A DNA stretch of 64,000 nt from a phage. Positions 1-17,764 of this stretch are shown here, piece after piece. Both the position numbers and the translations under genes were made by a program. The stretch is from sequence record PZ583741.1. One strand, written 5' to 3'. Below the pieces are notes generated by a model that saw only the letters and a list, made by a program, of their open reading frames with translations, was not told the DNA's origin and searched no databases. Position 1 is the stretch's first letter; each line of letters begins with the position of its first letter.

Positions 1-27
1 AAACCCCGCCCAGGCGGGGTTTGTTTT
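1..27. terminator. GC-rich hairpin (aaaccccgcc/ggcggggttt) with flanking T-run; putative bidirectional terminator after ssb
   Basis: Inverted repeat read directly; T-run 20-27; lies 3' of minus-strand SSB. Confidence 0.45.
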
Positions 28-31
28 ATCA

Positions 32-541
32 TCAGAACGGAATGTCGTCGTCGAAGTCAATCGGCGGCTCATTGCCTCCTTGTGGGCTTTGTTGTTTTTG
101 TGGCTGTTGTTGTTGCGGATTTGTCCCCCATCCACCTTGAGGTTGCTGTCCTGATTGCTGGCGTGGTTGTTGCTGATCAGAATCATCACGTCTACCACCA
201 AGCATCTGCATAACACCACCCATCTGCGGAATGACAATCTCAGTGGTGTATTTTTCAACGCCGCTCTGGTCTGTCCATTTGCGAGTGAGTAATTTACCTT
301 CCACGTACACCTGAGAGCCTTTCCGCAGGTATTCACCAGCAACTTCTGCCAGCTTCCCGAAGATAACCACGCGATGCCATTCAGTTTGCTCTTTCTTTTC
401 ACCTGTGGCCTTGTCATTCCACTGTTCTGATGTTGCAACGGAAAGATTGGCAATTGCAGAACCTGATGCTGAATATCTAATTTCCGGGTCATTACCAACT
501 CGACCAAGGATTATGCACTTATTAATACCAATCGAAGACAT
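32..541 (-). CDS. ssb: single-stranded DNA-binding protein (OB-fold, acidic C-terminal tip DDDIPF)
   Basis: 169 aa; N-terminus [19 protein letters not shown] resembles bacterial SSB; Q/G-rich linker; C-terminal DFDDDIPF. Confidence 0.85.
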
Positions 542-1059
542 TACTTGAATCTCCCGTTTTTATCTCTTAATCTGCCATTATGATTCTCTGTGGCGTGTAA
601 TGATGCGTGCTCTGACTTCGTCATAAGCATTAGGTTACTTGGATGGTTGTTTGTTTTATCATGGTCTATATGATGAACGCATTCATTGTGAAACAACCTC
701 CTCCCAATAATGCCTTCCATAACTACAACATGCTCTCCTCTTCCTTTGTTTTCACCCATAGTTATCTCGACATAACCGTTCGGTTTTACAGAGCGCCCCT
801 TGCCAACTCCTTTCTTTGATTTTGATATATTTTGCTTCCATTCTTCAGTAAACTCTCGTTTTTTACCCCTAAGTCCTGAGCCAAGCCTTCCCTCTGCGGC
901 AGCAATTCTTATTGCATCCCCTCTGCTTCTCAATATTCCGGCTTTCTTAAATCTAAACCTCAATGTTGACATGGCTATTCCTGTTTCATTGGAGATTTGA
1001 GGGATGCTCATGCCAGACAAATACATATCAAACTCATTCATATGCACCTCCTTGTGCAA
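541..1059 (-). CDS. HNH endonuclease with N-terminal HTH-like region
   Basis: 172 aa; [15 protein letters not shown]...HASLH matches an HNH motif. Confidence 0.65.
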
Positions 1060-1121
1060 TATAGTAATTTACAACCATCAAGTCAACTTTTAATTACTTT
1101 ATTTACGCCGCGTGCCATTTA

Positions 1122-1781
1122 TTAAAATCCTTCAATTGGAGTTGGTTTATGTTCGGTTTTTTCTTCCTGCGGTTCTGGCTGCTGTGGTTGCTGTTTGGCC
1201 AGTTTTGCAGGGTTAAATGATTCACCTGATACCATGAATTTAGCCTTCATCTCCTGATAAGCGCCAACAATAACGCGAGTTGCTGCATCATCACCACGAA
1301 ACGCCTTGTATTCTTCGCCATAGATTGAAGTTAATTCTTCCATGCTCGCTGCGTTTCGAATTAATGCGACTGCGTCTTTTGGTGATTTGCGAGCGGCATT
1401 ACCGTCATCATCAGCCTGAGCAATACCAAACATTGCCGCGATGGAATATCTGCGTGCGTACGTCATTGCGGAACCATACCCTTGCGCATCCTTCTTGGCT
1501 ACTGGCATTGGCATCACTGATGACATGTACTCGCCAGACTCATGCATTATCGTTGTTTCAAGTTTAAGCACATCCATTGAGTCGCCATCAATGGCATTCT
1601 GGATGATTATAAGACCATTAGCCTCAAGCGCTGGACGTATCGCATCAAGGAATGACTCAAGGTTTGCGTAATTGCTTTTCAGGTGTGGGTTTTTGGCGTT
1701 TTTCTTTGCGCCGCTACTCATCACCTTGCGAGCCTCAACCAGAGCCTTAATCAGATTTGCTTTCTGTTCCGAGAAAATCAT
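1122..1781 (-). CDS. putative single-strand annealing protein (Erf-like, family uncertain)
   Basis: 219 aa; conserved block DAQGYGSAMTYARRYSIAAMFGIAQADDDGN shared with the B paralog 45335..45985; sits next to exonuclease and SSB. Confidence 0.5.
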   Translation of the reverse strand: MIFSEQKANLIKALVEARKVMSSGAKKNAKNPHLKSNYANLESFLDAIRPALEANGLIIIQNAIDGDSMDVLKLETTIMHESGEYMSSVMPMPVAKKDAQGYGSAMTYARRYSIAAMFGIAQADDDGNAARKSPKDAVALIRNAASMEELTSIYGEEYKAFRGDDAATRVIVGAYQEMKAKFMVSGESFNPAKLAKQQPQQPEPQEEKTEHKPTPIEGF

Positions 1782-1798
1782 TTACATCACCTCACTAA

Positions 1799-2749
1799 TT
1801 ATAAATTAAATTGTTTTTTGAACCATTCTGGCGTTTCCATTTCTATTACAGGATTACCCATTGAATAACCCGGCCACGAATTGGCCTTTTTGCACGCCTT
1901 GTAAATTTCCATTGCACCATTTAACTGGATGCGACCGATTCGTAATTGCTCCTCTGTCAATCGAATCAACGCAGGAATAAACGGCGCTTTCTTTTCCTGC
2001 ACGAGAAGATTCACAGAGCGTGGCGCATGACCATATGCCGCAACAAACATGTCGTGCTGCATCGCCATTTTCATAAAGTAGCCAAGTCGCGCAGCATGGC
2101 GGAAAAACTCATCAGGCTTGGCGCTAACTGCCGTCTTGTAGTCAATGATTTCGCCACCTTTTGTCAGGCAGTCAAAGCGAACTTTTGCTTTTTCTCCATT
2201 AAGTTCACCGAGGATTGACACTTCCGCATAAGCACCAGAAAGAAGGCTGCTGTAATAGCTGTTTGCGTGAATTACAGCACGCATTTGCTGAATAGCATCA
2301 TAATAATGCCCTTCTAACAAAATGCGACCATTGGAGTTAATTTCAGCAATAAGACGCTCTTCGTCGTAAATCTTCACTGGCTCGCCAGTTGCACGAATGA
2401 TTTTGATCACATCAGCTTTCGACTTCCCTGAGAGTCCTTTGATGCCTCGCTCTTTCGCCCATGAGTTCATGTCACTGACAGTAACTAGCAGATCATCACC
2501 AAAATCTTCTTTGGTTGGCATGCGAGCATATTCAGCATCGAAACGCTCAGGTTCAAGCAGAGCTGTATGACTTCCGGTTCCGAAGATAAGTGCTTTTGAT
2601 TGCTCATCTTCTTCGTCTTTGTAGCGCCAAGCTGCTGGGCATCTGTCAAGTATATTCCATAACCCAGAACCATTAATATGCTCGGTGTCAGCGTGGTATT
2701 GCTCATTAGTTAATTCATTATTGAAATAGACCTTCATTGTTAACCTCAC
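1799..2749 (-). CDS. PD-(D/E)XK family exonuclease (recombination exonuclease, partner of annealing protein)
   Basis: 316 aa; EIIDYKT motif; homologous to B ORF 44137..45108. Confidence 0.55.
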   Translation of the reverse strand: MRLTMKVYFNNELTNEQYHADTEHINGSGLWNILDRCPAAWRYKDEEDEQSKALIFGTGSHTALLEPERFDAEYARMPTKEDFGDDLLVTVSDMNSWAKERGIKGLSGKSKADVIKIIRATGEPVKIYDEERLIAEINSNGRILLEGHYYDAIQQMRAVIHANSYYSSLLSGAYAEVSILGELNGEKAKVRFDCLTKGGEIIDYKTAVSAKPDEFFRHAARLGYFMKMAMQHDMFVAAYGHAPRSVNLLVQEKKAPFIPALIRLTEEQLRIGRIQLNGAMEIYKACKKANSWPGYSMGNPVIEMETPEWFKKQFNL

Positions 2750-2774
2750 TCATCATCACGTAAATGAATCTACA

Positions 2775-3215
2775 TCAATCCACATCAAAAGGCAAGCCAA
2801 AATAGGTCAACACTGCAATCTTTATCTGGTCGAGTCCACACGCCACCGCAGAGAATGCACCAGCGCTGGCGCTATCGTTGAGAAACGGTATCTGTCCTGG
2901 TTGCCATTTGCTAAGCGTTGAATCATGGCGCTTCAACTCTATCGTCGCTTTATGCCACCCACCCCCGGGCGTCAGGATTATCACATCAGACACCCCTGAC
3001 CTGACACCTTTCCTTGCGCGCGATGCAAGATGCTGCACTGAGTTGCTTTTGGTCTCCTGAGACGGATGGAACCACAGCACATCAGGAAACCGGTAATCCA
3101 TCCACCACTTGAACGCTATCAATTCGGAATCCTCAAGCGGACACTCGCCGCGGTAACCATCATCAAAAATTAATACCTTGTCACTCAGCTCATGCTGCTT
3201 GAATCGCTTTTTCAC
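2775..3215 (-). CDS. VRR-NUC domain nuclease
   Basis: 146 aa; D...IELKR PD-(D/E)XK core; homolog of B 52676..53095; overlaps helicase 3' end. Confidence 0.55.
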   Translation of the reverse strand: MKKRFKQHELSDKVLIFDDGYRGECPLEDSELIAFKWWMDYRFPDVLWFHPSQETKSNSVQHLASRARKGVRSGVSDVIILTPGGGWHKATIELKRHDSTLSKWQPGQIPFLNDSASAGAFSAVACGLDQIKIAVLTYFGLPFDVD

Positions 3216-5124
3216 TATTCTCTCCTGTAAAATCTTTTCTGTGGATTATGTCGCGACCTTTATCATTAATACGATGCGTGATGCGTTTTGGCGCTTTAAT
3301 CAATCCCGCATACATCATGAACTGCTTGGCGTTCTGGCATTTCAGGATTTTTCCAGCCATTGACTTATCATCAAGGTGAGGAAATACTGCCTTTGCCTTG
3401 AACATATTTTTCATGTGAGTTGCGCCGCCATAAGGGTAGAAAACTTCGTTAGCCCAGCCTTCTTTGCCATCACAACGATTAATCCAGTAGCGATATAAAA
3501 TACCATCTCCATCCTTCGTTAACTGGACTTTGAAATCCATAACATCAGCCCACTCATTATCCGTATACGCACGCTCATTCAGTGCCGCATTCGGGTCACG
3601 CAAAACATGATCACAATGCCGGCAATAGCGCGCTGTCGGGTCGTTTTTAGTACCGCATCCATCATCAAAAATACGGATTCCATGCTTATCGAAGCCGCAA
3701 CGGATGTAACTGAAAAACTCCTCGCAGCGACCATCTTGCGACAATGCATCTTTGCCAATGCAGCGGCGCGCAGATGGGCTGTTCATTGTTCCGCATTTCG
3801 GACACGGAACTTGTTCGCCGCTGCGTTTTGAACGTTGCGCTTCAGCCTCTTCCAGAATAGGGTCTTCATACAGCTGACCAAGCTCAAACATCGTTCCTGA
3901 GAAATCAAGAACCAGATGGTCTTCTTTATGATACCCGGCATCAATTTGCTCTTTCTTCAGCAGGCGCATTCCGCGACCAAGCAGCTGAACAAGAAGAGTG
4001 AGTGACATTATTTTTCGTAATATGCAGCTCGTATCCCATAACGGTATATTTACGCCAGTGGTAAGGGCTGCTATCTGGAATGTGAATTTTTTACGCCCGG
4101 TGTATGCATCTTTTAGAGCCTTCCTTCTGGCTTTTGACCCAATATCTTCTGTAACTATTGAATAACTTCCTTCAGGCAAATATTTTGCCGCCTCCTGGCA
4201 ATGCTTTTTACCAGCACATGTAATTAGCACTCCGTTCCTGTTTTTAGTCAACTCCATAACCTTGAGCATGATTTTCTGCGTCAACGTACCTTGCTCAAGA
4301 ATTTCTTTCTGCATCTGCTTGAGCTGCTCGGCGGTAAAGTCCTGAGTGCCATCAACATCTGAACCATGAAAATCCGAAAGGTCATAATGCAGACTATCAA
4401 CATCATGAAGACCAAAAATTGTTGGCACAAGAAAACCGTTTTCAACCATGTACTTGGTGTCTATGTTGATAATCTCTTTCTTCCAGAAAGCGCCTTTTAT
4501 TGATGTAGTTCCGCGAAACGGTGAGCCTGTATAACCTATTATTCTTAACTCATGGCCGTGCTTATCTTTGCACCTTTTCATTAGCTCATTAATTATCACT
4601 GCATACTGCGTATCACCATCATTAACAACGTCAATGTCATTAACCATATGATTTTCATCGATCAGCAGAAATCTTGGGCAAAAGTCAGAAAGCGCGCCTT
4701 TTGCAATAACATTCCCTGACTCATCCTTTTTGTCAAACAAAGCATTTGCAACAGTACCCTCAGAGCCACAGATTATTGGGTACGTAGAACTTTTCCTACC
4801 CAACGAAGCACTGAATAGTGAGTTTCTAACACCAAGCGCCCATAGCTCTTCCGCATCTTGCTCCACTATTTCGCCCTGTCTTGATAAAATCATCCCTGAA
4901 TAGCCCATTTCCTGAAAACGCTTTGCTATCATGGCAATCATTAGTGACTTTCCGCTACCGACGCTTGCTGTTACATAGCTCGGGCCAACATAATGACGAA
5001 TAACATCGCCAGTTAACTTATATATCAACCACTGATAAGGTCTTGGCTCGATATCACCAGTATCCAAGCAGGATTTCAGCAAGTTAATGTCAATCTCTGA
5101 AATCATCTTGTCTATTTTGTGCAT
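3190..5124 (-). CDS. SF2 DNA helicase with C-terminal zinc ribbons
   Basis: 644 aa; Walker A GSGKS, DExH-like LIDENH, motif VI LLGRGMR, CPKCG/CRHC zinc ribbons. Confidence 0.8.
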   Translation of the reverse strand: MHKIDKMISEIDINLLKSCLDTGDIEPRPYQWLIYKLTGDVIRHYVGPSYVTASVGSGKSLMIAMIAKRFQEMGYSGMILSRQGEIVEQDAEELWALGVRNSLFSASLGRKSSTYPIICGSEGTVANALFDKKDESGNVIAKGALSDFCPRFLLIDENHMVNDIDVVNDGDTQYAVIINELMKRCKDKHGHELRIIGYTGSPFRGTTSIKGAFWKKEIINIDTKYMVENGFLVPTIFGLHDVDSLHYDLSDFHGSDVDGTQDFTAEQLKQMQKEILEQGTLTQKIMLKVMELTKNRNGVLITCAGKKHCQEAAKYLPEGSYSIVTEDIGSKARRKALKDAYTGRKKFTFQIAALTTGVNIPLWDTSCILRKIMSLTLLVQLLGRGMRLLKKEQIDAGYHKEDHLVLDFSGTMFELGQLYEDPILEEAEAQRSKRSGEQVPCPKCGTMNSPSARRCIGKDALSQDGRCEEFFSYIRCGFDKHGIRIFDDGCGTKNDPTARYCRHCDHVLRDPNAALNERAYTDNEWADVMDFKVQLTKDGDGILYRYWINRCDGKEGWANEVFYPYGGATHMKNMFKAKAVFPHLDDKSMAGKILKCQNAKQFMMYAGLIKAPKRITHRINDKGRDIIHRKDFTGENSEKAIQAA

Positions 5125-5645
5125 TATTTTACCCTACCAAATTCACCATGATACTTTTTTGATGCTTCCGCATAAACTTTTGCTGCTTCTTCTTTTGTAT
5201 CATATCTGCCGAGCCATATTTTTTTATTATTTACATGTATAGAGCAAGTCCATTTTTTTGTTTGCTTGCAAAAACCAACCCCCTTTACACCGGATGTGTT
5301 ATGGCTTGGAATCCTCATGTTTCTTAAATTTCCATTAAAGTTTGTTTCTCTTAGATTTTCTATCCTGTTATTCAATCTATTACCATCTTTATGGTCTATT
5401 ATTAACTCAGGCCAATAACCATGCACTAAAGCCCAAATTATTCTATGAACCTTTATATCAACACCTAAAAAGCCAACCTGAAGATATCCACTTACAGTCT
5501 TAGAACCTGCAATAGCGCCACGTTTAACCCTGTTTGTTGTTGTTCTTTTCCATATGAGATTTATTCCGTCATATGAAAAATACTCCCGCAACGTGGATAC
5601 TGGTATTGACTTCTCTTTTAACTTCATCAATTCGAAATCATTCAC
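5124..5645 (-). CDS. HNH homing endonuclease with AP2-like DNA-binding domain
   Basis: 173 aa; HRIIWALVHG...IDHKDGNRLNNRIENL HNH motif then GVKGV...W AP2-like segment. Confidence 0.65.
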   Translation of the reverse strand: MNDFELMKLKEKSIPVSTLREYFSYDGINLIWKRTTTNRVKRGAIAGSKTVSGYLQVGFLGVDIKVHRIIWALVHGYWPELIIDHKDGNRLNNRIENLRETNFNGNLRNMRIPSHNTSGVKGVGFCKQTKKWTCSIHVNNKKIWLGRYDTKEEAAKVYAEASKKYHGEFGRVK

Positions 5646-5707
5646 TTTACGTTACCCTCATTCAGTGTTACGCTTAAAGCATACAAACAGTAACAGATGG
5701 AGTCAAC

Positions 5708-6658
5708 ATGTTTTCTTGGGAAGAGATACAACAAAAGATGATTGGAAATTGGGAGGCGGCACTACTGTCAATAGTCAACATAGACAGGAAAATTTTTTCT
5801 GGAAAACATCAACCATGCCCTCATTGCATGGGGGTTGACCGGTTCCGTTGGGATAATCACTTCGAAACAAAAGGCGACGGCGGAGCAATCTGCAATCAGT
5901 GCGGTTCCGGTAGTGGCATGAACTGGCTGATGAAACTCTCCGGCATGAGCTTTCCCGAAGCACTGGAGGCGCTGGGTGGATTCCTGAACATGCACCCGCG
6001 TGAAAAGCTGGAGGCAATCAGGAAGGAGCTGCCGAAGATAAATCACAACGATGACTTCATCACAGAGCAGGAAGTCGCAGCAATCATGGCTAAAACGACG
6101 CGTGTCTCGATGAATGAGTGGACTTTGATAAACGGTATTGGTTGCGACGTTAATGTCGCCAGAGGTAAATCTGGAGAGCTTATTGTGGTTGAGATGGTGC
6201 GTGCTGACACAATGAAGCCGTGCAACGTGGCATTCATTGGCATGGATGGTGATGCATTCAAAACATTTTATAAAGCAGGATACAACAAAGACTCAGCCAT
6301 AAACGGAAAACTCACGCGAGGCTCGATAAGCCCAATCGGAGAAGACAACGGAAAGTTCATTTATCTGGTATCTGATTATGCCGATGCATGGAAATGCCAT
6401 TACTTCACTGGCGCTCATGTCTGGTGTTGCTGGTCGCCGGAAAACATGTGGGAAGTGGTGCGTTCTGTTAGCGATGAGACGAAGGCGAGATTGCGCTGCA
6501 TAGTTAATTATAAATTTGACGAACTTTGCGCTGCGGAAAATTCAGGGCTTCCGGTGATGTTGCCTGATGATGCTGACACTATCAGGATGGCGAAGAGAAT
6601 CAGAAGAAAGATTTATGATGCTGGCGAGTTGATAGAGAAAATGTCAGTCAGCAGATAA
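5708..6658 (+). CDS. DNA primase (zinc-ribbon plus TOPRIM-like domain)
   Basis: 316 aa; CPHCMG...CNQCG zinc ribbon near N-terminus; homolog of B 49122..50045; divergent from helicase. Confidence 0.7.
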   Translation: MFSWEEIQQKMIGNWEAALLSIVNIDRKIFSGKHQPCPHCMGVDRFRWDNHFETKGDGGAICNQCGSGSGMNWLMKLSGMSFPEALEALGGFLNMHPREKLEAIRKELPKINHNDDFITEQEVAAIMAKTTRVSMNEWTLINGIGCDVNVARGKSGELIVVEMVRADTMKPCNVAFIGMDGDAFKTFYKAGYNKDSAINGKLTRGSISPIGEDNGKFIYLVSDYADAWKCHYFTGAHVWCCWSPENMWEVVRSVSDETKARLRCIVNYKFDELCAAENSGLPVMLPDDADTIRMAKRIRRKIYDAGELIEKMSVSR

Positions 6659-6661
6659 AAG

Positions 6662-6688
6662 AAACCCTCCAATCGGAGGGTTTTTGTT
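6662..6688. terminator. rho-independent terminator (ccctcc-aatc-ggaggg plus T-run), between convergent genes
   Basis: Hairpin and TTTTTGTT read directly. Confidence 0.6.
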
Positions 6689-6689
6689 A

Positions 6690-7094
6690 TCAGCGTTTCA
6701 TCTTGTCAATTTCATCGTCAATAATCTTTATTATCTCTCGCTTTGCATTCCTCCATGCATAAATGGCATCAAGCGAAGCTCTGTCTTTTGAATCACCGGT
6801 AGCTGTTGAATACAGGATTATGTCTCCCATCTTACAAAATGTATCTATGTAAACAGCCCTAAAAAGACCATCGCCGCAACTCCAGCACAAGCAATTATTT
6901 ATTTTCTTGCAATCATTACCAATGATTCCGGTGCTAAACAACTGAATCCAGCCAATAGGTTCACCAATGGAAATGTCATACTCATCACTATGACCACTAA
7001 CAGAGCACTCAAGACGGAACGTTCGATATTCATGCAGATTGAGACATAATGATCTGTAAATAAGGAATTTAGATCTTTTCTTAACGCTCATCAC
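6690..7094 (-). CDS. hypothetical Cys-rich protein
   Basis: 134 aa ORF, several Cys pairs; no family recognised. Confidence 0.35.
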   Translation of the reverse strand: MMSVKKRSKFLIYRSLCLNLHEYRTFRLECSVSGHSDEYDISIGEPIGWIQLFSTGIIGNDCKKINNCLCWSCGDGLFRAVYIDTFCKMGDIILYSTATGDSKDRASLDAIYAWRNAKREIIKIIDDEIDKMKR

Positions 7095-8683
7095 AACCCC
7101 CTCATAAATCTCATGCGCTTAACGGCAGCAGAAAGATAATTTCTAACCGTTGAGTTCATCCGCAGACCATCCCATGAACCATCACTGCACATCTTAATTG
7201 CTCTTGGATTATCCCTGTCCAGCATTAGTGGTGAATGTTTGTTCTCCTCAATAGCAAGAAGAACTTCATAAACAAATTTATCAGGCGTTAACGTGATGTT
7301 GTTCGAGTCAGCAGAATTGATTATCTTTTCGACTCTGTCACGGCACAGCTTGTTCTTTATAACAGACAAATAAGGCGTTTTAATGAATGCTTGTGATTCA
7401 CAAATTCGCTTTATTTTTTCAACAATGTTCGACCACTCAGTATTCTCAAGTCCATCAAATGCCTGTTCACCCTCAAGGAATCTTTTCAGCCCCGCGAGGT
7501 GTTCAAGAACAGTGAGATAACCCCACTCGATATGCTCCGTCGTAACTGATGGTGTCATTCCCTGACGACTTGACAGATCGGTATACGCCGCCAGAGTTGC
7601 AAGATCGACAATCATTAGACCCATGCGAGGGATAACATCACCAACAACACCATCGCAATCACCAAGCTCACTTTCCAGTTTCATAGACAGAGATCTGTGC
7701 AGTTTTTTCGCATTATCATCAGCCCATACAACGTGAGTTTTCGCGGTAAGAACCCTACCTTTCCACTCATTGATTATTTTTCTTGAAAGCGTACCACTCA
7801 CTTCCACATCCTTCATCGCTGGCATTTCCTCACCAGCAAGATGTCCAAGCTGGAACAGAACGCGACCCATACCGCCATCTTTCTGCCATGAACGCGCAGC
7901 ATCTATTCCCTGCTCTGGTGTGACAGTAATCAGCGGAACAAATTTTGCGTTTTCAATTCCACCGTCTTTTGTTGCAATTTCGTACTCATTCATTGCCGAC
8001 TTTAGCGCGCGCCCAACGCTGTGATCCATCATCGCAAGTCGCTTATAATCTATAACTCCTTTTCCATCATCGCCACCAGTAAGTGGCACTATCCATCCCT
8101 CAGCGCTTGCTGCCGCCATGATGCGTTTTGGGTTTTGTTCCCAAGTAAGGTTTTCAAGCAACTCCTTGATTATTGGTCTGTTAGGAACCCACACGCCGCC
8201 ATCAGTGAGGCCTCTATACCACGCCATAGTACCGCCAAGATATGCATTACGCGGGTTATTCCAGTCTTCAAGATGTTGCTTGTCATCATTCACAACGTAG
8301 AGCAAAGACCCACCTCCGGCAATCAGGTCTAACTGCATCTGTTTCGTAGATGTTGATTTAGACGCGCAAACTCTGGACCCTATTCCCAGCGCATTGGCAT
8401 ATGCCCTGACGAAACTCACCGGGGCACCCTTACCTGCACCAGAGCGAGCTACCAGAAATATGCCAGTATTGCAGATACTACCTGTTGGACCAATCAAGTA
8501 TCGTCCAGCCATCGCCTGAGCAAGACCCAAAGCGCCAGTTAAACGATATCTTCCACCTCCATCACGGCGCTCAAACCCCCTTGCGATCTCATCCATAAAC
8601 TCACCAAGTGCCCCGGGAGCATCCCGCTTTATGCCCATAGCCAGAGACTCAAAATCAATCGAACTCATCAATACACCATCCAT
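7091..8683 (-). CDS. P-loop NTPase, putative replication protein
   Basis: 530 aa; Walker A ARSGAGKGAP, Walker B-like LLYVVNDD; same relative position as B 58773..60356. Confidence 0.4.
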   Translation of the reverse strand: MDGVLMSSIDFESLAMGIKRDAPGALGEFMDEIARGFERRDGGGRYRLTGALGLAQAMAGRYLIGPTGSICNTGIFLVARSGAGKGAPVSFVRAYANALGIGSRVCASKSTSTKQMQLDLIAGGGSLLYVVNDDKQHLEDWNNPRNAYLGGTMAWYRGLTDGGVWVPNRPIIKELLENLTWEQNPKRIMAAASAEGWIVPLTGGDDGKGVIDYKRLAMMDHSVGRALKSAMNEYEIATKDGGIENAKFVPLITVTPEQGIDAARSWQKDGGMGRVLFQLGHLAGEEMPAMKDVEVSGTLSRKIINEWKGRVLTAKTHVVWADDNAKKLHRSLSMKLESELGDCDGVVGDVIPRMGLMIVDLATLAAYTDLSSRQGMTPSVTTEHIEWGYLTVLEHLAGLKRFLEGEQAFDGLENTEWSNIVEKIKRICESQAFIKTPYLSVIKNKLCRDRVEKIINSADSNNITLTPDKFVYEVLLAIEENKHSPLMLDRDNPRAIKMCSDGSWDGLRMNSTVRNYLSAAVKRMRFMRGL

Positions 8684-8997
8684 ACGCGCAAGAATTTACC
8701 ATGGATAACACCATGTTTCACCGTTAACACAGCACCCACCCTGTCAGCCTCAATTTTTAGCGCCCTCTGAAGTGACGCCATTGTCATCTGAAAACCTCGC
8801 TCTATGTCGTATGCGTAGCACCCATCTCTGCCACCAATCAAAATTGAAGTTGAATACCCGTTCTCAAAGTAAAACTGACACCCATCAGGAGCGGTAAGAT
8901 TATTTATCACGTCGTGAGCAAGCGATGTCGTAACAGGGAATATCGGAGCGCAACTCATACTCACCTCACTCAACTCGCTTAATGTGCAAAACTTCAT
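8668..8997 (-). CDS. hypothetical protein
   Basis: 109 aa ORF in minus-strand operon. Confidence 0.3.
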   Translation of the reverse strand: MKFCTLSELSEVSMSCAPIFPVTTSLAHDVINNLTAPDGCQFYFENGYSTSILIGGRDGCYAYDIERGFQMTMASLQRALKIEADRVGAVLTVKHGVIHGKFLRVWMVY

Positions 8998-9214
8998 CGA
9001 AATATGAGCACGTTCTGAATTTCATCCCAAAATCCTCACCAACCCTTCCGAGACACGCGCGAAATCTTTCAACAGAAAGCCCTTTATCTGCAATATCCTC
9101 ATAAGCAATTGAATTAACCTGGCCAACATCCATATGTTTTGCAACGCGATACACGAATTCCATCTTTGAACCATCACGATACATTTTGTTTCTCATAGTC
9201 ACCTCAATCCGCAT
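8966..9214 (-). CDS. hypothetical protein
   Basis: 82 aa ORF, first gene of minus-strand operon. Confidence 0.3.
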   Translation of the reverse strand: MRIEVTMRNKMYRDGSKMEFVYRVAKHMDVGQVNSIAYEDIADKGLSVERFRACLGRVGEDFGMKFRTCSYFDEVLHIKRVE

Positions 9215-9851
9215 TCCAACAGTAACTATAGATAAAAAATAAAATTAACGCAACGCAAAACAGGTCTAACCAGCAACAACAGCTACCACACTTAACAACT
9301 AGTCTGACCACCATCTCGTATCAGATATATGTGGATGGTGCCCGTCGTTTAATTTGTGCTCGATTTTTACCTAATTTACCGTATATTTATTGGTCAGTTT
9401 TTGCATAACTAATTGATTTATATGATTTACCGGTTTTACCGGAACTCTAAGGAGTATTTTCATCATTGAGAGTAGTAGTATATTAATTGGTCTAATTTTT
9501 AAATAACTCTAATAAAATCAATATATTAATATAAGAAAGTAACTTGCTTACTTATATAGGATTTACCGGGTAAAACCGGTAACTCCTCCGCATCCCGCGT
9601 CATTACTGGATTGATTTTTACCACCTGTAGGTAAATACAGTAGTTTTTAAGTCAGGATTGTTTTTGTAAGATGTTGATTACCGGTACTTTATTTGAAAAA
9701 CCGGGATTTACCGGGTTTTTGTTGTGTGATTAATAATTGCGCAATTGGTCATGTTTCAACAGAACACACTGATGCGACATCTGAAAATCATATTGACGTA
9801 GAATTACAACTGATGTAGATTGAACTCATCGAAACAAACGAGGGTGAAGAG
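9215..9851. promoter_or_regulatory. AT-rich divergent intergenic region with at least five (A/G)TTTACCGG(G)T repeats
   Basis: atttaccggttttaccgg, atttaccgggtaaaaccggtaa (palindromic), gattaccggt, ccgggatttaccgggttttt read directly; 640 bp without ORFs. Confidence 0.5.
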
Positions 9852-10037
9852 ATGAAAGAAGAAAGCACGTACAGCATTGACCAGATGAAGTTATTCAGCG
9901 ATATATGCATGGCATTGTCACAACAGGTTCCAAGCCTGCCTGCTGATATGCGCTCAAATGCCATCATTGATGCGGCAAACATGATTTGCGAGGCATATGC
10001 GATGACTGAAGATGAATATAAGGATTCGAAGAAATGA
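9852..10037 (+). CDS. hypothetical small protein
   Basis: 61 aa ORF starting the plus-strand operon. Confidence 0.35.
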   Translation: MKEESTYSIDQMKLFSDICMALSQQVPSLPADMRSNAIIDAANMICEAYAMTEDEYKDSKK

Positions 10038-10436
10038 CAGGCGCAGCATTCGAGCTTATCGCCAGTCTGGTTATCGCGGCATTCATTATCATCGCAGTGG
10101 CAGTTTATAAATCAGGATATAAGGAGTGACAGAATGAGCAGCTGGCATAATGAACACATCATGCAATGGTATCGTCGCCGCATTAAGACAATCATTAACT
10201 CTCACGAGGTGCAATAAATGGCAAAGACTATCTATCGTCGCGAGAAGCTGGAATAAGAACTCGGTCACGTTGGCGCGCAGAACTTCATGAGCAAGCAGGC
10301 ACGCAATGCAATGGAATCTATCCGCGTAAATCGCGTTGTGCGCGTGTTCAATGGCGAGGGTAAACGAAGAGTAATGGATGAGCTGATTATCGTATTTTGA
10401 CCTCGATTCAGCGCTCTTATTTTTAATGGTGATGAT

Positions 10437-10670
10437 ATGGCAAAAGTAAAAACATATGAGTTCTGGTTTGTGCAGAACAAAATTCATGCAAGCAAGATAA
10501 TCAAGCGAGCGCACTGGTGGAATAAGTGGCTAATCCTGTCAGGATGCATTGTGCTGGCAAAGTGCAAATTCAAAGCGATTGACATCACAGATGAGGATTC
10601 ACTCAAAATCGCAAAGATTGAGTTTGAAGAAGATGGCTATTACGAAGAAATTATGGGGGTTAGGGTATGA
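10437..10670 (+). CDS. hypothetical small protein
   Basis: 77 aa ORF. Confidence 0.35.
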   Translation: MAKVKTYEFWFVQNKIHASKIIKRAHWWNKWLILSGCIVLAKCKFKAIDITDEDSLKIAKIEFEEDGYYEEIMGVRV

Positions 10671-11068
10671 GTGAAGTTAAAACATACGCAGTGAATTGCA
10701 ATGACGCATGGCTAAACACCGAAGGTGATAACATCTCCGGGTCATACGTTAAGTACAAAGACCATCAGGAAGTGGTTGCCGCTATTGAGGCCAAGTGCGC
10801 GGCGCTAGCAGCGGAGAATGCGGCGCTTAAACAGTCGGAGAAGGAATTTAATAACTTCTGTCGTCAGGAGTACTACGGTTGGGAGGACAACTTCACGGAA
10901 ACCCCAGCCACCGATGATTTTCTGGTTGAAATTGAACGCAAAGCAATCCGCAAGTTCATTAACAGTATTGAACACATTCTTCGCGACAAGTTGTCACCGT
11001 ATGACACAGAAGAGATGCTTGAGGATATGCGTATTTTCCTGGAAGAGCAGAGTGGTGAGCAAAAATGA
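10667..11068 (+). CDS. hypothetical protein
   Basis: 133 aa ORF, start overlaps upstream stop (ATGA). Confidence 0.4.
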   Translation: MSEVKTYAVNCNDAWLNTEGDNISGSYVKYKDHQEVVAAIEAKCAALAAENAALKQSEKEFNNFCRQEYYGWEDNFTETPATDDFLVEIERKAIRKFINSIEHILRDKLSPYDTEEMLEDMRIFLEEQSGEQK

Positions 11069-11367
11069 CAATCACAAAACAACGTGTAGAAGAAATAATA
11101 TCGCGCATTGAAATGTATGGGCATGGTGCCGGGTATACCGCAGAAGAGGTTTATGACCTTGCTATACTGGCGCTGAATTTATCAAATATCGCAAACCTGA
11201 AGCGATACGAACTTGATATGGATGGTTGCGACTCGTGCGGTCAGGATTGTGGCGCTGACATGAGCGAAGACCCTGAAGGCGAATTTGTCATGTTCGACGA
11301 TGTTGTCAAGATGGTTCAGTTCGACACTACCAACCTGCAATTCGAAAGCCTGGCTAAAAGTGAATAG
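11065..11367 (+). CDS. hypothetical protein
   Basis: 100 aa ORF, overlapping start. Confidence 0.4.
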   Translation: MTITKQRVEEIISRIEMYGHGAGYTAEEVYDLAILALNLSNIANLKRYELDMDGCDSCGQDCGADMSEDPEGEFVMFDDVVKMVQFDTTNLQFESLAKSE

Positions 11368-11512
11368 CTACCCGTTCATATTAATTATCAGTGCGCTCTA
11401 TGTGTCGCACGCTTTAGTGGAGGCATACCAATGAACAACCACAAACGACGCCGATACACCACTGGCGCTAAAATCTTCCTTGCTGTTTATGTGCTGGCAC
11501 TTGTAGCAGCTG

Positions 11513-11710
11513 TTGCAGGAGTTGTGCATTATGTTTAACGATATCAGTGACGCAATGCAAAACATGTGGGAACGCTACTGGGACGGTATGATGACGTGTC
11601 ATTACATGATGGTGCAGCTCGGCAATCGCATTGAGGTTGTACCTGACAATGGTGTGCATGACATCAAGTACATGTGCTCTACGAGGGATTATGCTAATGC
11701 AAACAACTAA
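11513..11710 (+). CDS. hypothetical small protein
   Basis: 65 aa ORF. Confidence 0.3.
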   Translation: MQELCIMFNDISDAMQNMWERYWDGMMTCHYMMVQLGNRIEVVPDNGVHDIKYMCSTRDYANANN

Positions 11711-11870
11711 AGCCAAGGTTTGGCAACTCGCCAAGCAGCACGAATTGGACGATTTTATAGCGAAGGTTGCCAAAACATTCCCAGATGCGCTTGAAATCGT
11801 TCATGTGCAGACGCAAACAGAAAATGCATGGTGCTATGCTGGCAAGCGTGGTAATGATAGTGTACAATAA
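11691..11870 (+). CDS. hypothetical small protein
   Basis: ATG at 11691 preceded by gaggga; ORF-track start 11631 is probably too far upstream. Confidence 0.3.
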   Translation: MLMQTTKAKVWQLAKQHELDDFIAKVAKTFPDALEIVHVQTQTENAWCYAGKRGNDSVQ

Positions 11871-11914
11871 ACGCATAACCACCATTGCTTTCACTCATAT
11901 CATCACCCAACCTT

Positions 11915-11942
11915 TGACCCGCCTTGTGCGGGTTCTTTTTTG
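11915..11942 (+). terminator. rho-independent terminator (acccgcc-ttgt-gcgggt plus T-run)
   Basis: Read directly. Confidence 0.55.
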
Positions 11943-12018
11943 TCATTAACAGCATGGCGTAGAATCTGTTACAATATCGAATAACGGGAAAAAAGCGGAA
12001 TATTGATAGGGTTTATAT

Positions 12019-12435
12019 ATGGCTAAAAAGCTATTCAGTAAAGAAAATCAACCACAAAATAAACGTGGGAAAGACAAGCGTAAGTTGCTCGTTGAAGCTC
12101 TTGAGAGAAAGGGGTTTAGTGAGGAAAAGCTCTATGACGCCATCGTTGAGATGGCGATGATTGAGCGTGATACTGCAATGATGAAAGAGCTTATCGTTCG
12201 ATTCAGTCCGTTACCTAAGCCTGTCGCCCCTGTTTTTGAAGTTGATTTCCCTGATGACGGAACTCCGGTAGAGAAGATTGATGCTGTTATTCGTGGCATA
12301 GCTGCTGGTGTTATACCTGTGGACATTGGAAAGACATTTGCGGAGGTTATCAGGACTGGGCTTGATATTGCTGAAGTTACCGAACTCGCCGCGCGCCTTG
12401 AGCGACTGGAGAAATTACTGGCGCAGCAACAGTAA
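12019..12435 (+). CDS. putative terminase small subunit
   Basis: 138 aa, basic N-terminus, coiled-coil C-terminus, immediately upstream of large terminase; positional inference. Confidence 0.4.
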   Translation: MAKKLFSKENQPQNKRGKDKRKLLVEALERKGFSEEKLYDAIVEMAMIERDTAMMKELIVRFSPLPKPVAPVFEVDFPDDGTPVEKIDAVIRGIAAGVIPVDIGKTFAEVIRTGLDIAEVTELAARLERLEKLLAQQQ

Positions 12436-12534
12436 CTGATTTATAATAATTAATGCGGCTAGGGGGCACCCGAAAAGCGACTCATCACCGCCTGCCGCAT
12501 TCACTTCAATGATGCCCTGATGAGGAATCTATAT

Positions 12535-15054
12535 ATGGCACGCAAAAGACTGTCAGCACCAGCAATTGAAAAACTCGAAGAGATTATTGGCGATGGCGTG
12601 ATTGATACGCCTGAATCCGCGGTGTTCGGTGTTGTTAATACAGATAAGCAGATTGTTCGCAAACTAAAAATGACGCAAAGCGGAGTTGATGACGTTAGCG
12701 ACTCTGATATTAACGTTGATCACCTGATACCAGAAAAGCTGGAAAAGCTACTTTACCCCAAGCGAAATAAGATTGTGTTTGGCGGGCGCGGATGCTTAGC
12801 CATCGGCACAATGGTTAGGATGTTTGATGGTAGCCTAAAACGCGTAGAGGATATCGCTGTTGGCGATAAGGTTATGGGTCCAGACAGTAAACCACGAAAT
12901 GTTTTAAGCATCTGCCGTGGGTTTGATGACATGTATACGGTTCATCAAAAATATGCTGAGGACTACACTGTCAACTCAAGTCACATACTGTCATTACGAA
13001 AGATTCCATCTGCTATCAGTGACGAGACAAAAACACCGGATGGTAAAAGAATTTATCGTTATTACCCAAATGACCCTGAAATACTTAATATCGGTGTTTC
13101 AGAATATTTGTCGCGCGCAACTTCCACGAAGTTCCGTCATGTCTTTAAAGGGTGGCGAACAGGATGGGATTTTCAGGAACAAAGCGTTCCAATTGACCCG
13201 TACTTTCTTGGTTTATGGTTAGGTGATGGCTCATCTCGTAGTGTTGAAGTATGCACGCCTGATCCAGAGATAGTTGACTACCTTCACGGTGTGGCAAGCC
13301 AATATGGGATGCAGGTAAAGGTTCGCGACGATGATAGATGCCCTGTCTATGCGATAACTAATGGTCGAGCTGCTGGCATGGGGAAAAACACCAACCCTTT
13401 ACTAACTAAAATGCAGCAGCTTGGGGTGATTAATAATAAACACATACCTGACTGCTATATTAAAAACAGCAGACAGGTAAGACTTCAGATTCTGGCTGGG
13501 CTATTGGATACTGATTCGCATTACCACAAAGAAAAGAAAAGCTATTGTTTTACATCAATAAATAAAGATATAGCCTTCTCTTTGATGGATGTGGCAAGAT
13601 CACTTGGCTTCAAGTCAAGCATAATCAAAAAGACCGATGTCACCTTTGAGTATAAAGGTGAGAAAAGAATATACGAAAAGGATGTGTGGGAGGTGTTCGT
13701 TAGTGGTGAACTTCATACAATCCCATGCCGAGTAAAAAGGAAGATAGCAGAGAAAACCAAGTCAACCCGTGGAAAGATGACTGAGGTGTCATTGTCTTAT
13801 GCCGGGCATGGTGTATACGCTGGATTCACTCTTGATGGCGATCATCTTTTCTTGCTTGCTGATGGCACAGTTACACACAACAGCGGAAAAACAAGAACAG
13901 TAACTACAATACTTACGGAGCGTGCACGCTTTAAGCCTGACAGGATAGCTTGTTTCCGTGAGATTCAGCAGTCTATTGAGGATAGTTCGTATCAGGAACT
14001 GAAAGACGAGATTGACAGGAAGGGCGAGACAAAAGAGTTTCGCGTAATCAACAACGAAATAACACACAAGGTAACGAAAGCAAAGTTCCGCTTTAAAGGT
14101 CTGTATCGCAACCAGACGACCGTTAAAGGCTTTGCTGGCATTACAGTCGCTTGGGTTGAGGAGGCTGAAAACGTTAGCCAGACAAGCTGGGAAATCCTCA
14201 CTCCAACTGTTCGCGCTGATGGCTCTGAGATATGGGTGACATTCAACCCAAATAAGGAGCATGACCCCACATGGAAGACGTGGGTTGAGCCGTTTTATAG
14301 CAAACTGCGCTCAAGTGGCGGTATTTACGAAGACGAAGAAAACCTGATTATTGAATGTAACTATTCAGATAATCCGTGGTTTTGGGATACGCCACTACCC
14401 AGCCAAATGCAACGAATGAAAGAGACAGACTTCGACCGCTATCAATGGGTTTGGGGTGGTCGCTTTAACAAGAGGAATGACGAGCAGGTCTTTGGCGGCA
14501 AATGGCGCATTGATAACTTTGAGGTTAAACCTGAATGGCACGGCCCATACTTCGGGATGGACTTCGGGTTTTCCACTGATCCTACCGCAATGATTGAAGT
14601 TTACATCGAAGAACTACCAGGTGCACGGCGCAACATTTATATTAATCGCGAATATGGCAAGGTTGGCCTTGAGATTACCGATACACCAGCTGCGATGGAG
14701 CAATCATTCCCGATGGCTAAGCGCGCGCGATGGTATGCAGACTGCGCTCGACCGGAAACCATCAGCCACATCAAGCGTTCTGGCTTTGATATTCATCCAT
14801 GCACAAAATGGCCGGGAAGCGTTGAGGATGGCGTAACGTGGCTGCGCGGCTGCGACAGTATCATCATCCATGAGCGATGCAAGGAAATGCAGAATGAAGC
14901 GGCAATGTACAGCTATAAGGTTGATAAGCTGACCGGAAATGTACTCACGGATATTGTTGATGCATATAACCATTACTGGGATGCCGTTCGCTATGCGCTT
15001 AATGACCACATCGTCCAGCGCGGTAGCGGAATGCTAATCCGGCGCAGGAGATAA
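12535..15054 (+). CDS. terminase large subunit, intein-containing precursor
   Basis: Exteins give GGRG|SGKT Walker A, WVEEAE, VTFNPN, GMDFGF..DPTA, ADCARPE, NHYWDAVRYAL; ORF track starts at 12520, ATG at 12535 has a better RBS. Confidence 0.85.
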   Translation: MARKRLSAPAIEKLEEIIGDGVIDTPESAVFGVVNTDKQIVRKLKMTQSGVDDVSDSDINVDHLIPEKLEKLLYPKRNKIVFGGRGCLAIGTMVRMFDGSLKRVEDIAVGDKVMGPDSKPRNVLSICRGFDDMYTVHQKYAEDYTVNSSHILSLRKIPSAISDETKTPDGKRIYRYYPNDPEILNIGVSEYLSRATSTKFRHVFKGWRTGWDFQEQSVPIDPYFLGLWLGDGSSRSVEVCTPDPEIVDYLHGVASQYGMQVKVRDDDRCPVYAITNGRAAGMGKNTNPLLTKMQQLGVINNKHIPDCYIKNSRQVRLQILAGLLDTDSHYHKEKKSYCFTSINKDIAFSLMDVARSLGFKSSIIKKTDVTFEYKGEKRIYEKDVWEVFVSGELHTIPCRVKRKIAEKTKSTRGKMTEVSLSYAGHGVYAGFTLDGDHLFLLADGTVTHNSGKTRTVTTILTERARFKPDRIACFREIQQSIEDSSYQELKDEIDRKGETKEFRVINNEITHKVTKAKFRFKGLYRNQTTVKGFAGITVAWVEEAENVSQTSWEILTPTVRADGSEIWVTFNPNKEHDPTWKTWVEPFYSKLRSSGGIYEDEENLIIECNYSDNPWFWDTPLPSQMQRMKETDFDRYQWVWGGRFNKRNDEQVFGGKWRIDNFEVKPEWHGPYFGMDFGFSTDPTAMIEVYIEELPGARRNIYINREYGKVGLEITDTPAAMEQSFPMAKRARWYADCARPETISHIKRSGFDIHPCTKWPGSVEDGVTWLRGCDSIIIHERCKEMQNEAAMYSYKVDKLTGNVLTDIVDAYNHYWDAVRYALNDHIVQRGSGMLIRRRR
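12793..13881 (+). mobile_element. intein (363 aa) with LAGLIDADG homing endonuclease domain inserted in terminase Walker A
   Basis: Starts with Cys (tgc 12793), ends His-Asn (cac aac 13876-13881), +1 residue Ser; LGLWLGDGS and LAGLLDTDS motifs; flanks reconstitute GGRGSGKT. Confidence 0.8.
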
Positions 15055-15756: not shown

Positions 15757-15966
15757 ATGATGAGCGTTTATTTTTATTGCGGTCACATTGAGCGACAAGG
15801 AAGCGTAGCGAGCGTTGGTAGTTTCTGCGGATTATCAATTGGACCTGATGCTGTTAGCGCATATGAAGATGTCATGAGAGCGCAGGTGAAGGAAATCCAG
15901 TCAATCACTGAGAGCGGCGCTTTTAATCTTTCTGTTATTTTTGATAAATTCGAAAAGGTGGAGTGA
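15757..15966 (+). CDS. hypothetical small protein
   Basis: 69 aa ORF overlapping next start. Confidence 0.35.
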   Translation: MMSVYFYCGHIERQGSVASVGSFCGLSIGPDAVSAYEDVMRAQVKEIQSITESGAFNLSVIFDKFEKVE

Positions 15967-16442
15967 TGATTGATTGGGTATCTTTATTTGATTATGATGG
16001 AGCGTCTTTGGTGTGGAAGCATGGAAGGGGAGGTGTTTCCGTTGGCAGCATTGCGGGAACGGTTAATGCTGGCGGGTACATTCAGCTCAAAGTTAACGGA
16101 AGATTTTATTATGCCCACAGAATTATATGGGAAATGCATAACGGTCCTATACCGGAAGGTATGGAGATTGACCACATAAATCATAACAAGGCGGACAACA
16201 GGATTGAGAATTTGCGTCTTGTTCGACACAAAACTAACACTAAAAACGCGCCTAAATACAAAAATAACACCAGCGGCGTTACTGGTGTGAGTTGGTATAA
16301 GAGAGATAAAAAATGGCTAGCACAAATAATGGTTGATGGCAATTACATACGTCTTGGTCTTTTTGATAATTTCGAAGCAGCAGTCGACGTGAGAAAGGAA
16401 GCAGAACTAAGGTATGGATTTCACAAGAACCACGGCGCTTGA
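15963..16442 (+). CDS. HNH homing endonuclease with AP2-like domain
   Basis: 159 aa; HRIIWEMHNGPIPEGMEIDHINHNKADNRIENLRLV, near-identical block in B ORF 22049..22561. Confidence 0.75.
   Translation: MMIDWVSLFDYDGASLVWKHGRGGVSVGSIAGTVNAGGYIQLKVNGRFYYAHRIIWEMHNGPIPEGMEIDHINHNKADNRIENLRLVRHKTNTKNAPKYKNNTSGVTGVSWYKRDKKWLAQIMVDGNYIRLGLFDNFEAAVDVRKEAELRYGFHKNHGA

Positions 16443-16470: not shown

Positions 16471-17764
<1,294 letters not shown>

Follow-up and report, generated by a model that had tools for sequence, protein, structure and literature searches.

The window analysed here, a stretch of 64,000 nucleotides (nt) of phage DNA from sequence record PZ583741.1, contains a gene for a large terminase subunit (TerL) whose Walker A motif is split by an in-frame insert. 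The longest open reading frame (ORF) at the terminase locus runs from 12520 to 15054 on the plus strand and encodes 844 amino acids (aa). Within this frame, positions 12793-13881 translate into 363 codons with zero stops. The insert peptide starts with CLAIGTMVRMFDG and ends with GFTLDGDHLFLLADGTVTHN, and is flanked by ...KIVFGGRG on one side and SGKTRTVT... on the other. A preliminary description of the stretch, made from the letters alone, had placed a 363-aa insert here, with Cys directly after GGRG and His-Asn directly before SGKT; this placement is exact to the base on translation. The features of the gene are:

12535..15054, plus strand: gene for the large terminase precursor (TerL, PBSX/Terminase_3 family), 839 aa plus stop; matches TIGR01547 (4.8e-39), Terminase_3 and Terminase_3C
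12535..12792, plus strand: N-extein of 86 aa; its last four residues, GGRG (codons 12781-12792), are the first half of Walker A
12793..13881, plus strand: predicted intein, 363 aa, class 1, with Cys1, block B N61/H64 and His362-Asn363, followed by Ser+1
12793..13191, plus strand: N-terminal part of the Hint domain, aa 1-133; Hom_end_hint covers aa 1-85, and aa 1-56 align with PI-SceI 1-56
12964-12996, plus strand: block B (YTVNSSHILSL), inside the N-terminal Hint part together with block A
13192..13752 (3' limit approximate), plus strand: predicted LAGLIDADG homing-endonuclease domain, aa ~134-320, with fold matches to I-DmoI and PI-SceI
13207-13233, plus strand: LAGLIDADG motif 1, LGLWLGDGS, intein aa 139-147, with catalytic D145
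13492-13518, plus strand: LAGLIDADG motif 2, LAGLLDTDS, intein aa 234-242, with catalytic D241
13753..13881, plus strand: C-terminal part of the Hint domain; blocks F and G are YAGFTLDGDHLFLLADGTVTHN, 13816-13881
13882..15054, plus strand: C-extein, 390 aa plus stop, starting with SGKT, the second half of Walker A (13882-13893)

The preliminary description took the whole 844-aa frame as the terminase. The frame exists, but a second ATG lies at 12535 with GAGGA ahead of it, and because all annotated relatives start at this ATG, a TerL precursor of 839 aa is more likely than one of 844 aa. The calculated masses are 96.2 kDa for the precursor (839 aa), 55.2 kDa for the ligated exteins (476 aa) and 41.0 kDa for the intein. 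The last of these agrees with the ~41 kDa given before, whereas the earlier figure of ~53 kDa for the spliced product was too low.

The protein scores 134.9 bits against the PBSX terminase model TIGR01547 of NCBIfam (cut-off 105, E-value 4.8e-39). Both Terminase_3 and, at the C-terminus, Terminase_3C are matched, so that the gene encodes an ATPase with a Walker A motif as well as a nuclease; the C-extein comprises the remainder of the ATPase domain and the RNase H-like nuclease domain, and begins with the residue at the +1 nucleophile position (Ser455 of the 844-aa ORF). Removing the insert improves the Terminase_3 match from 2.7e-31 (profile positions 12-201) to 1.8e-36 (positions 3-201): the intact ORF loses the first 11 positions of the profile, whereas the extein-only protein keeps its fit from position 3.

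TerL proteins that carry no insert delimit it precisely. The window protein is collinear with those of Shigella phage DS8 (474 aa) and Klebsiella phage VLCpiS13c (S13c; 476 aa), at 83-84% identity, and the sole large gap in the alignment is of 363 residues, between GGRG and SGKT (SSKT in S13c). Excision of exactly the insert would therefore restore GGRGSGKT, as had been proposed. We searched a collection of 50,697 phage records by tblastn with the spliced N-terminal 163 aa: 205 records cover at least 80% of the query, and the ~50 close relatives listed match it as one uninterrupted piece of 489 nt. The extein-only protein is collinear with these uninterrupted terminases, and in none of the ~50 was a homologous non-intein domain seen at the site.

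Identity and distribution of the insert

Searched alone against Pfam, the insert matched Hom_end_hint (E-value 5e-21, aa 1-85), Hom_end (1.7e-9) and LAGLIDADG_3 (5e-7), well beyond what chance would give. The whole protein reached 16.1 bits against TIGR01443 (intein_Cterm; cut-off 15.6, E-value 0.01), a marginal match. By sequence, the closest solved relative is the yeast VMA1 intein PI-SceI (E-value 1.3e-19), and the alignment extends from end to end, Cys1 on Cys1 and the terminal His-Asn on His-Asn. Both LAGLIDADG motifs line up, and D145, D241 and K216 are the equivalents of PI-SceI D218, D326 and K301, respectively. The two motifs had already been picked out in the preliminary description, and hold the invariant residues D145 and D241.

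An AlphaFold2 model of the intein, made with 50 family sequences, has a mean predicted local distance difference test score of 93.4 and a predicted template modelling (TM) score of 0.90. Its top matches in the PDB are eleven PI-SceI chains (E-values down to 1.6e-27, TM score 0.78), followed by the Tli and Pho VMA inteins and PI-PfuI; the Prp8 and DnaB mini-inteins match at the Hint core. I-DmoI matches the endonuclease core of the model (TM score to target ~0.6), which thus has the pseudo-dimeric alpha-beta-beta-alpha-beta-beta-alpha fold. In the N-terminal Hint part, a short subdomain (aa ~71-117) takes the place where PI-SceI has a larger DNA-recognition region.

To inventory the catalytic residues, the insert and 49 homologues were aligned (50 members). 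C1, H64, D145, D239, D241 and N363 are invariant in all 50. N61 (44 of 50 members), K216, H362 and G146 are nearly invariant, and all of them are present in the window intein; Ser or Thr directly follows the intein in 48 of the 49 homologues. Block B has the N-x-x-H form (N61-S-S-H64) and block G reads ...DGDHLFLLADGTVTH362-N363 and is followed by Ser, as is characteristic of class 1. Six alleles (window, ST65, ST46, Segz_1, KpV2811 and pIS4-A) differ from one another at 32 positions, none of which is a catalytic or splicing residue. Hint and LAGLIDADG profiles, the PI-SceI alignment and the predicted fold all agree with the intein interpretation put forward earlier, and we regard it as highly probable that 12793-13881 encodes an intact intein of class 1 that has a double-motif LAGLIDADG endonuclease embedded in it and is inserted in-frame between Gly and Ser of the TerL Walker A motif (GGRG↓SGKT, the arrow marking the insertion point).

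Two other readings of the interruption were weighed. The first is that the insert, though derived from an intein, has become a permanent, non-splicing domain of the mature terminase. It would account for the GenBank records, which give one continuous 'terminase large subunit', and splicing in this phage group is itself a prediction. However, no P-loop could form with the insert in place, since it splits GxxxxGK[ST] after the fourth of its residues and before the fifth, and residues needed for splicing only (C1, N61, H64, H362, N363 and S+1) are all conserved, which makes such a domain very unlikely; in addition, ~50 close relatives function without the insert, and the extein-only protein is the better fit to the terminase profile.

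The second is that the interruption stems from an assembly or concatenation artefact, or that it is an intron or a free-standing homing-endonuclease gene. The window does contain an artificial join of two phage genomes, at ~17,652, but this lies 2.6 kb downstream of the terminase gene. The frame is continuous through both junctions and free of stops, and identical junctions occur in 18 independent genomes (seven isolated phages and eleven uncultivated ones), so that this reading can be set aside almost entirely.

The isolated carriers were found among the 50,697 phage records, where the interrupted gene is present in 11 records that represent seven phages: the Salmonella phages ST65, ST44 and ST46 (Macdonaldcampvirus) and Segz_1 (Segzyvirus), Klebsiella virus KpV2811, and 'Vibrio' phage pYD38-A and 'Aeromonas' phage pIS4-A (Roufvirus). 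IMG/VR added eleven uncultivated genomes of 36.6-48 kb, with inteins of 93-94% aa identity. In 15 further alleles the junctions are identical (KIVFGGRG↓SGKTRTVT) and the frame has no stop codon. All records of the seven isolated phages annotate the gene simply as a terminase. None of the retrieved papers that name these phages uses the word 'intein' either (InBase and subscription journals lay outside this search). The 839-aa 'terminase large subunit' of Segz_1, ST65, ST44, ST46, KpV2811, pYD38-A, pIS4-A and at least eleven uncultivated genomes would thus include an unannotated intein, and terminase phylogenies and packaging-type predictions for therapeutically relevant Salmonella, Klebsiella and Escherichia coli phages should be based on the extein-only sequence.

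Insertion register and related inteins

At an E-value of 1e-3 or below, 240 relatives of the intein were found. The best 120 of these are mostly 29-46% identical to it, apart from two near-identical fragments (P0001 and P0008), and most carry PF05203, usually with PF05204 and PF14528. Their host proteins are DnaB, Terminase_3, PhoH, thymidine/thymidylate kinases, ABC ATPases, RecA, RuvB, SF2 helicases and other P-loop NTPases. Nearly all mapped junctions fall inside Walker A, and two registers prevail. The register GxxxxGK↓T/S accounts for 36 of the 50 family members sampled, in DnaB, TK and other Terminase_3 hosts (P0004, P0016, P0018 and P0028). The register G↓(S/T/C)GK(S/T) accounts for 10, which comprise the window intein, the PhoH group and the P0009 group; the remaining 4 are in other registers (P0018, P0067, P0079 and P0089). 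The window insertion, G↓SGKT, is thus located three residues upstream of the classic Lys↓Thr site of the P-loop, the one used by TerL1-a, DnaB-b and MCM-a.

Inteins in the G↓xGK register do not form a single clade, this topology being recovered in 0 of 200 bootstraps; the PhoH group (174/200) and the P0009 group (200/200) stand separately. Because the register is polyphyletic, it has been reached independently several times. P0004, P0016 and P0028 form a clade that excludes the window intein (198/200). A neighbour-joining tree did group the window intein with the other Terminase_3 inteins, but bootstrap support for recent shared ancestry with them is only 100/200; a 'site slip' within the P-loop is therefore not claimed. 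The window intein is a distinct lineage at a non-classic register, with a weakly supported placement (100/200).

Among the best 120 relatives (P0002-P0120), at least 15 P-loop NTPase families that are unrelated to one another have their Walker A motif occupied by a single intein family, PF05203 plus PF05204. This spread over Walker A motifs is large-scale extein switching guided by the shared P-loop sequence.

PI-SceI from Saccharomyces cerevisiae VMA1 (PDB 1VDE, 1LWS and 1LWT) is the closest counterpart of solved structure. It is also a class-1 intein with an embedded monomeric double-LAGLIDADG endonuclease, and shares with the window intein the Hom_end_hint and Hom_end pair, Gly-1, the N-x-x-H form of block B, the two catalytic Asp residues and the active-site Lys. 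The two differ in sequence (22-23% identity) and in size (363 aa here and 454 aa in PI-SceI), the gap of ~90 residues falling mostly in the DNA-recognition region (aa 57-133 here, 57-206 in PI-SceI). The +1 residue is Ser here and Cys in PI-SceI, and motif 2 ends in Ser here and in Gly there. Finally, the window intein interrupts the P-loop of a phage terminase, whereas PI-SceI resides in a V-ATPase, ~20 residues downstream of its Walker A motif. A compact PI-SceI-like intein of 363 aa, with Gly-1 and Ser+1 and from a mesophilic enterobacterial system, may have potential as a splicing tool or as a rare-cutting endonuclease.

Mycobacteriophages provide well-described terminase inteins. Their TerL is the most intein-rich protein, and its commonest sites, TerL1-a and TerL1-b, lie in the Walker A P-loop, TerL1-a between the invariant Lys and Thr (the 'classic' site) and TerL1-b one residue away; several of these inteins splice and encode active endonucleases that cleave intein-free alleles, and in that set inteins occur only in Terminase_1 and Terminase_6 proteins (Kelley et al. 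2016, PMC5050341). The window intein resembles those at TerL1-a and TerL1-b in being a LAGLIDADG intein in the TerL Walker A motif, in its sporadic distribution and in the predicted dependence of packaging on splicing. Unlike them, it resides in a Terminase_3/PBSX host protein of enterobacterial siphoviruses, at a site three residues further upstream (G↓SGKT). Five inteins have also been described in prophage terminases of the PBSX/XtmB family, in a study that stresses P-loop clustering (Novikova et al. 2016, PMC4760082, Table 3), and with these and the metagenomic Terminase_3 inteins P0004, P0016, P0018 and P0028 the extein family is shared (PF04466/COG1783), as is the intein family (PF05203 plus PF05204, 39-41% identity).

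The four metagenomic inteins interrupt the same P-loop as the window intein, but they are inserted at GSGK↓S, in the classic register. Conversely, inteins of PhoH-like and other ATPases (P0029, P0042, P0059, P0105 and the P0009 group) are of the same family and in the same register, with the +1 residue before Gly-Lys, but their exteins are unrelated and they form no clade with the window intein (0/200). Near-identical inteins in divergent exteins have been interpreted as ongoing invasion, in a study which also argues that terminase inteins must splice (2025 preprint, 10.1101/2025.01.02.630785). The kind of element, the class of host protein, the preference for the P-loop and the evolutionary pattern are thus known already; specific to the present case are the phage group, the exact register G↓SGKT and a clean cassette structure.

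Identity island and apparent mobility of the intein

All intein-bearing phages share, around the insert, a block of high identity that reaches into the upstream ORF:

12378..14000, no strand: identity island in all intein-bearing phages, comprising the 3' end of the upstream gene, a spacer, the N-extein, the intein and ~120 nt of the C-extein
12019..12435, plus strand: upstream ORF, 138 aa, phrog_9747 (no function assigned), no Pfam match

Over these ~1.6 kb the intein-bearing phages are 92-100% identical, and 94-100% in the block of spacer, N-extein and intein, whereas the neighbouring DNA is 40-80% identical. In a sliding comparison with KpV2811, identity is 40-60% upstream, jumps to 98% at ~12,400 and stays at 91-99% to ~14,000; to the right it decreases to 79-93% up to ~14,500, to 62-78% up to the end of the gene and to ~50% beyond. 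The left edge is thus sharp, whereas the right edge falls stepwise to ~14,500. Comparisons with ST65, Segz_1 and KpV2811 all give the same left edge. Resolved to the base, the left breakpoint falls within the last ~17 codons of the 138-aa upstream ORF, where all phages compared share a conserved patch (12,378-12,428, encoding ...TELAARLERLEKLL...). Beyond this patch, intein-bearing and intein-free genomes have unrelated spacers, and just upstream of the edge the nearest relative of the window is the intein-free S13c (77-87%).

Within the gene, the parts have different affinities. Compared with KpV2811 and pIS4-A, the window intein is 95-96% identical, with a synonymous divergence (dS) of 0.11-0.15, and the N-extein 97.7%, whereas the C-extein is 80% identical and saturated (dS 1.5-1.9), no nearer to these two than to the intein-free DS8 (80.5%) and S13c (82%). 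N-exteins are 97.7-100% identical at the nt level among intein-bearing alleles and 58-61% identical to those of intein-free alleles, and this N-extein type is restricted to intein-bearing alleles. The cassette is 94-99% identical in the 15 further alleles. By the 400 nt upstream of it, these alleles can be sorted into at least three classes, with ungapped identities of 39-51%, 80-81% and 91%, and by the distal C-extein into two, with 73% and 90%.

The intein-bearing genome in the window, genome A, has a backbone (window positions 1-12,300) whose nearest relatives are the E. coli phages vB_EcoS_ASO78B (ASO78B; 93%) and ZCEC08 rather than the intein-bearing Salmonella phages. ASO78B was considered as the 'before' state of the locus; its TerL is intein-free but of another lineage (25-68% nt identity in aligned segments of 100 nt), and it is therefore unusable as such. 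Presence of the intein is thus incongruent with both the C-extein and the backbone, a footprint of mobility. The island has the shape that recent homing with co-conversion would be expected to leave. Base composition is of no use as a sign of foreign origin, since the gap between the intein (GC content 42.5%, 39.7% at third codon positions) and its flanks (44-48% and 42-51%) is too small.

The intein evolves under constraint. The ratio of non-synonymous to synonymous rates (dN/dS) is 0.10-0.27 for the intein in all informative pairs and 0.11-0.25 for its endonuclease domain. In a binomial test against neutrality that pooled two phylogenetically independent contrasts, 25 of 65 substitutions in the whole intein are non-synonymous (38% observed, 78% expected under neutrality, p = 4e-12), as are 12 of 27 in the endonuclease domain (44% observed, 79% expected, p = 8e-5). 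Because both the whole intein and the endonuclease domain are under purifying selection, the splicing and endonuclease activities both appear to be maintained.

This bears on a third alternative, in which the intein splices but its endonuclease is inactive, late in the homing cycle, and the island arose by ordinary module exchange with the intein as a passive passenger. We consider this possible, though unlikely. An inactive endonuclease would be in line with Ser242, which replaces the near-invariant Gly of motif 2 and is fixed in all alleles compared, and with the failure to find a cognate empty site in the phage records or IMG/VR. Against it stand both catalytic Asp residues and the Lys, all intact, a dN/dS of the domain that is below the neutral value (p = 8e-5), and the lack of any frameshift, stop or deletion in 16 alleles. 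A left breakpoint in a patch conserved in all phages is typical of ordinary recombination too, and the entire neighbourhood is mosaic; but the island is centred on the intein, in several backbones and beside at least three upstream flanks, which argues against a passive passenger. Three things lead us to infer protein splicing: the catalytic residues are intact, the intein is under purifying selection, and seven plaque-forming phages, each isolated independently, have the same interrupted P-loop; cleavage by the endonuclease, and its having started the island, are likewise deduced.

Several points weigh against an active, homing intein. Ser242 (13516-13518) stands where 49 of the 50 family members have the Gly that ends motif 2, and this could weaken the endonuclease; it is no caveat for splicing, and the terminal Gly, although conserved in the family, is no defining feature of LAGLIDADG endonucleases. 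Few substitutions underlie the selection tests, 27 in the case of the endonuclease domain. Ordinary mosaic recombination between phages could in principle produce the island with no endonuclease. The inferred target, the DNA site in the joined exteins, is GTGTTTGGCGGGCGCGGA↓AGCGGAAAAACAAGAACAG, and 17-22 of its 48 bases differ in the intein-free alleles available, wobble positions accounting for most of these. No intein-free allele with the same N-extein was found in the 50,697 phage records, where the best contiguous match is 76.7%, and a back-translated 41-nt pattern of the site had no match in IMG/VR (metagenome and genome collections were left unscanned).

Two observations concern the target site itself. 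The +1 Ser codon (13882-13884) is AGC in all intein-bearing alleles and in ASO78B, and TCA in the intein-free DS8 and S13c, a switch between Ser codon families that is impossible by a single synonymous step. In S13c, terL (2231-3661) encodes GGRGSSKT with the codons TCA TCT, so that Ser takes the place of the Gly that precedes the Walker A Lys, an unusual substitution in a P-loop. The change falls exactly at the intein target; it might protect the target, be tolerated as a variant, or reflect an error in sequencing.

A homing intein would act as follows. The 96-kDa precursor would be unable to bind ATP because 363 residues split its P-loop. The Hint domain would fold, and Cys1 and Gly-1 would form a thioester; attack by Ser+1 would yield a branched ester, cyclization of Asn363 would release the 41-kDa intein, and an O-to-N shift would leave a normal 55-kDa TerL with GGRGSGKT. 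With the P-loop restored only after splicing, DNA packaging would depend on it. During co-infection, the free intein or its endonuclease domain would cut intein-free terminase alleles, and repair would copy the intein in. Because the N-extein is too divergent between the two types of allele, crossovers would fall outside it, on the left in the 3' end of the upstream gene and on the right in the C-extein, both of which are conserved. With the nearest homology in these two places, the spacer and the whole N-extein would therefore be co-converted with the intein.

Taken further, this scheme would make the mobile unit an obligate cassette of ~1.5 kb (the spacer, the N-terminal 86 residues of TerL and the intein), in which an intein in a non-classic register drives replacement of the terminase N-terminus. 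We offer this as a conjecture that is more probably wrong than right by a wide measure. Were it true, the cassette would pass between siphoviruses that are elsewhere 40-80% identical and infect Salmonella, Escherichia, Klebsiella and, according to the reported hosts, Vibrio and Aeromonas, and the intein would shape the evolution of the packaging module rather than being a neutral passenger. The replaced N-terminus may be the part of the terminase that contacts the small subunit. Still more speculatively, Cys1-dependent splicing could act as a gate on the timing of packaging. For experiments, the attraction of the locus is that homing and co-conversion could be studied in an unusually clean natural setting, with a left breakpoint resolved to the base, in cultivable enterobacterial phages for which mixed infections are easy.

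Ten of the eleven uncultivated intein-bearing genomes come from one metagenome, 3300045988, where the cassette is found beside at least three upstream flanks; this suggests a local population in which the cassette circulates. Among the isolates, terL (516-3035) is 100% identical over 2,520 nt, intein included, between pYD38-A from the South China Sea and pIS4-A from Lake Inselsee, and ~97% identical to that of KpV2811, which is odd given the reported hosts and origins.

Neighbourhood of the terminase gene

The window joins two unrelated phage genomes at ~17,648-17,654. Genome A, from a Segzyvirus/Macdonaldcampvirus-like siphovirus, ends at ~17,652 inside the portal region. The remainder of the window is a nearly complete genome of ~46 kb with a terminase of its own, related to Escherichia phages vB_Ec-G8, SU57 and ACG-M12. 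Upstream of terL, the 138-aa ORF in which the left breakpoint falls may, judging by its position, encode the small terminase subunit.

Approximately 900 bp downstream of the terminase gene, at 15963-16442 on the plus strand, lies a free-standing homing-endonuclease gene of the HNH_3 plus AP2 type. Its product matches phrog_99 (E-value 4e-67) and HNH_3 (4e-23), and scores 25.5 bits against AP2, below the cut-off of 33.3. HNH genes also occur around terL in other phages, abutting its 5' end in ASO78B and nearby in Seszw, KFS-SE2 and LPST10. Given these varied positions, the neighbourhood of terL is a hot spot for several kinds of homing element.

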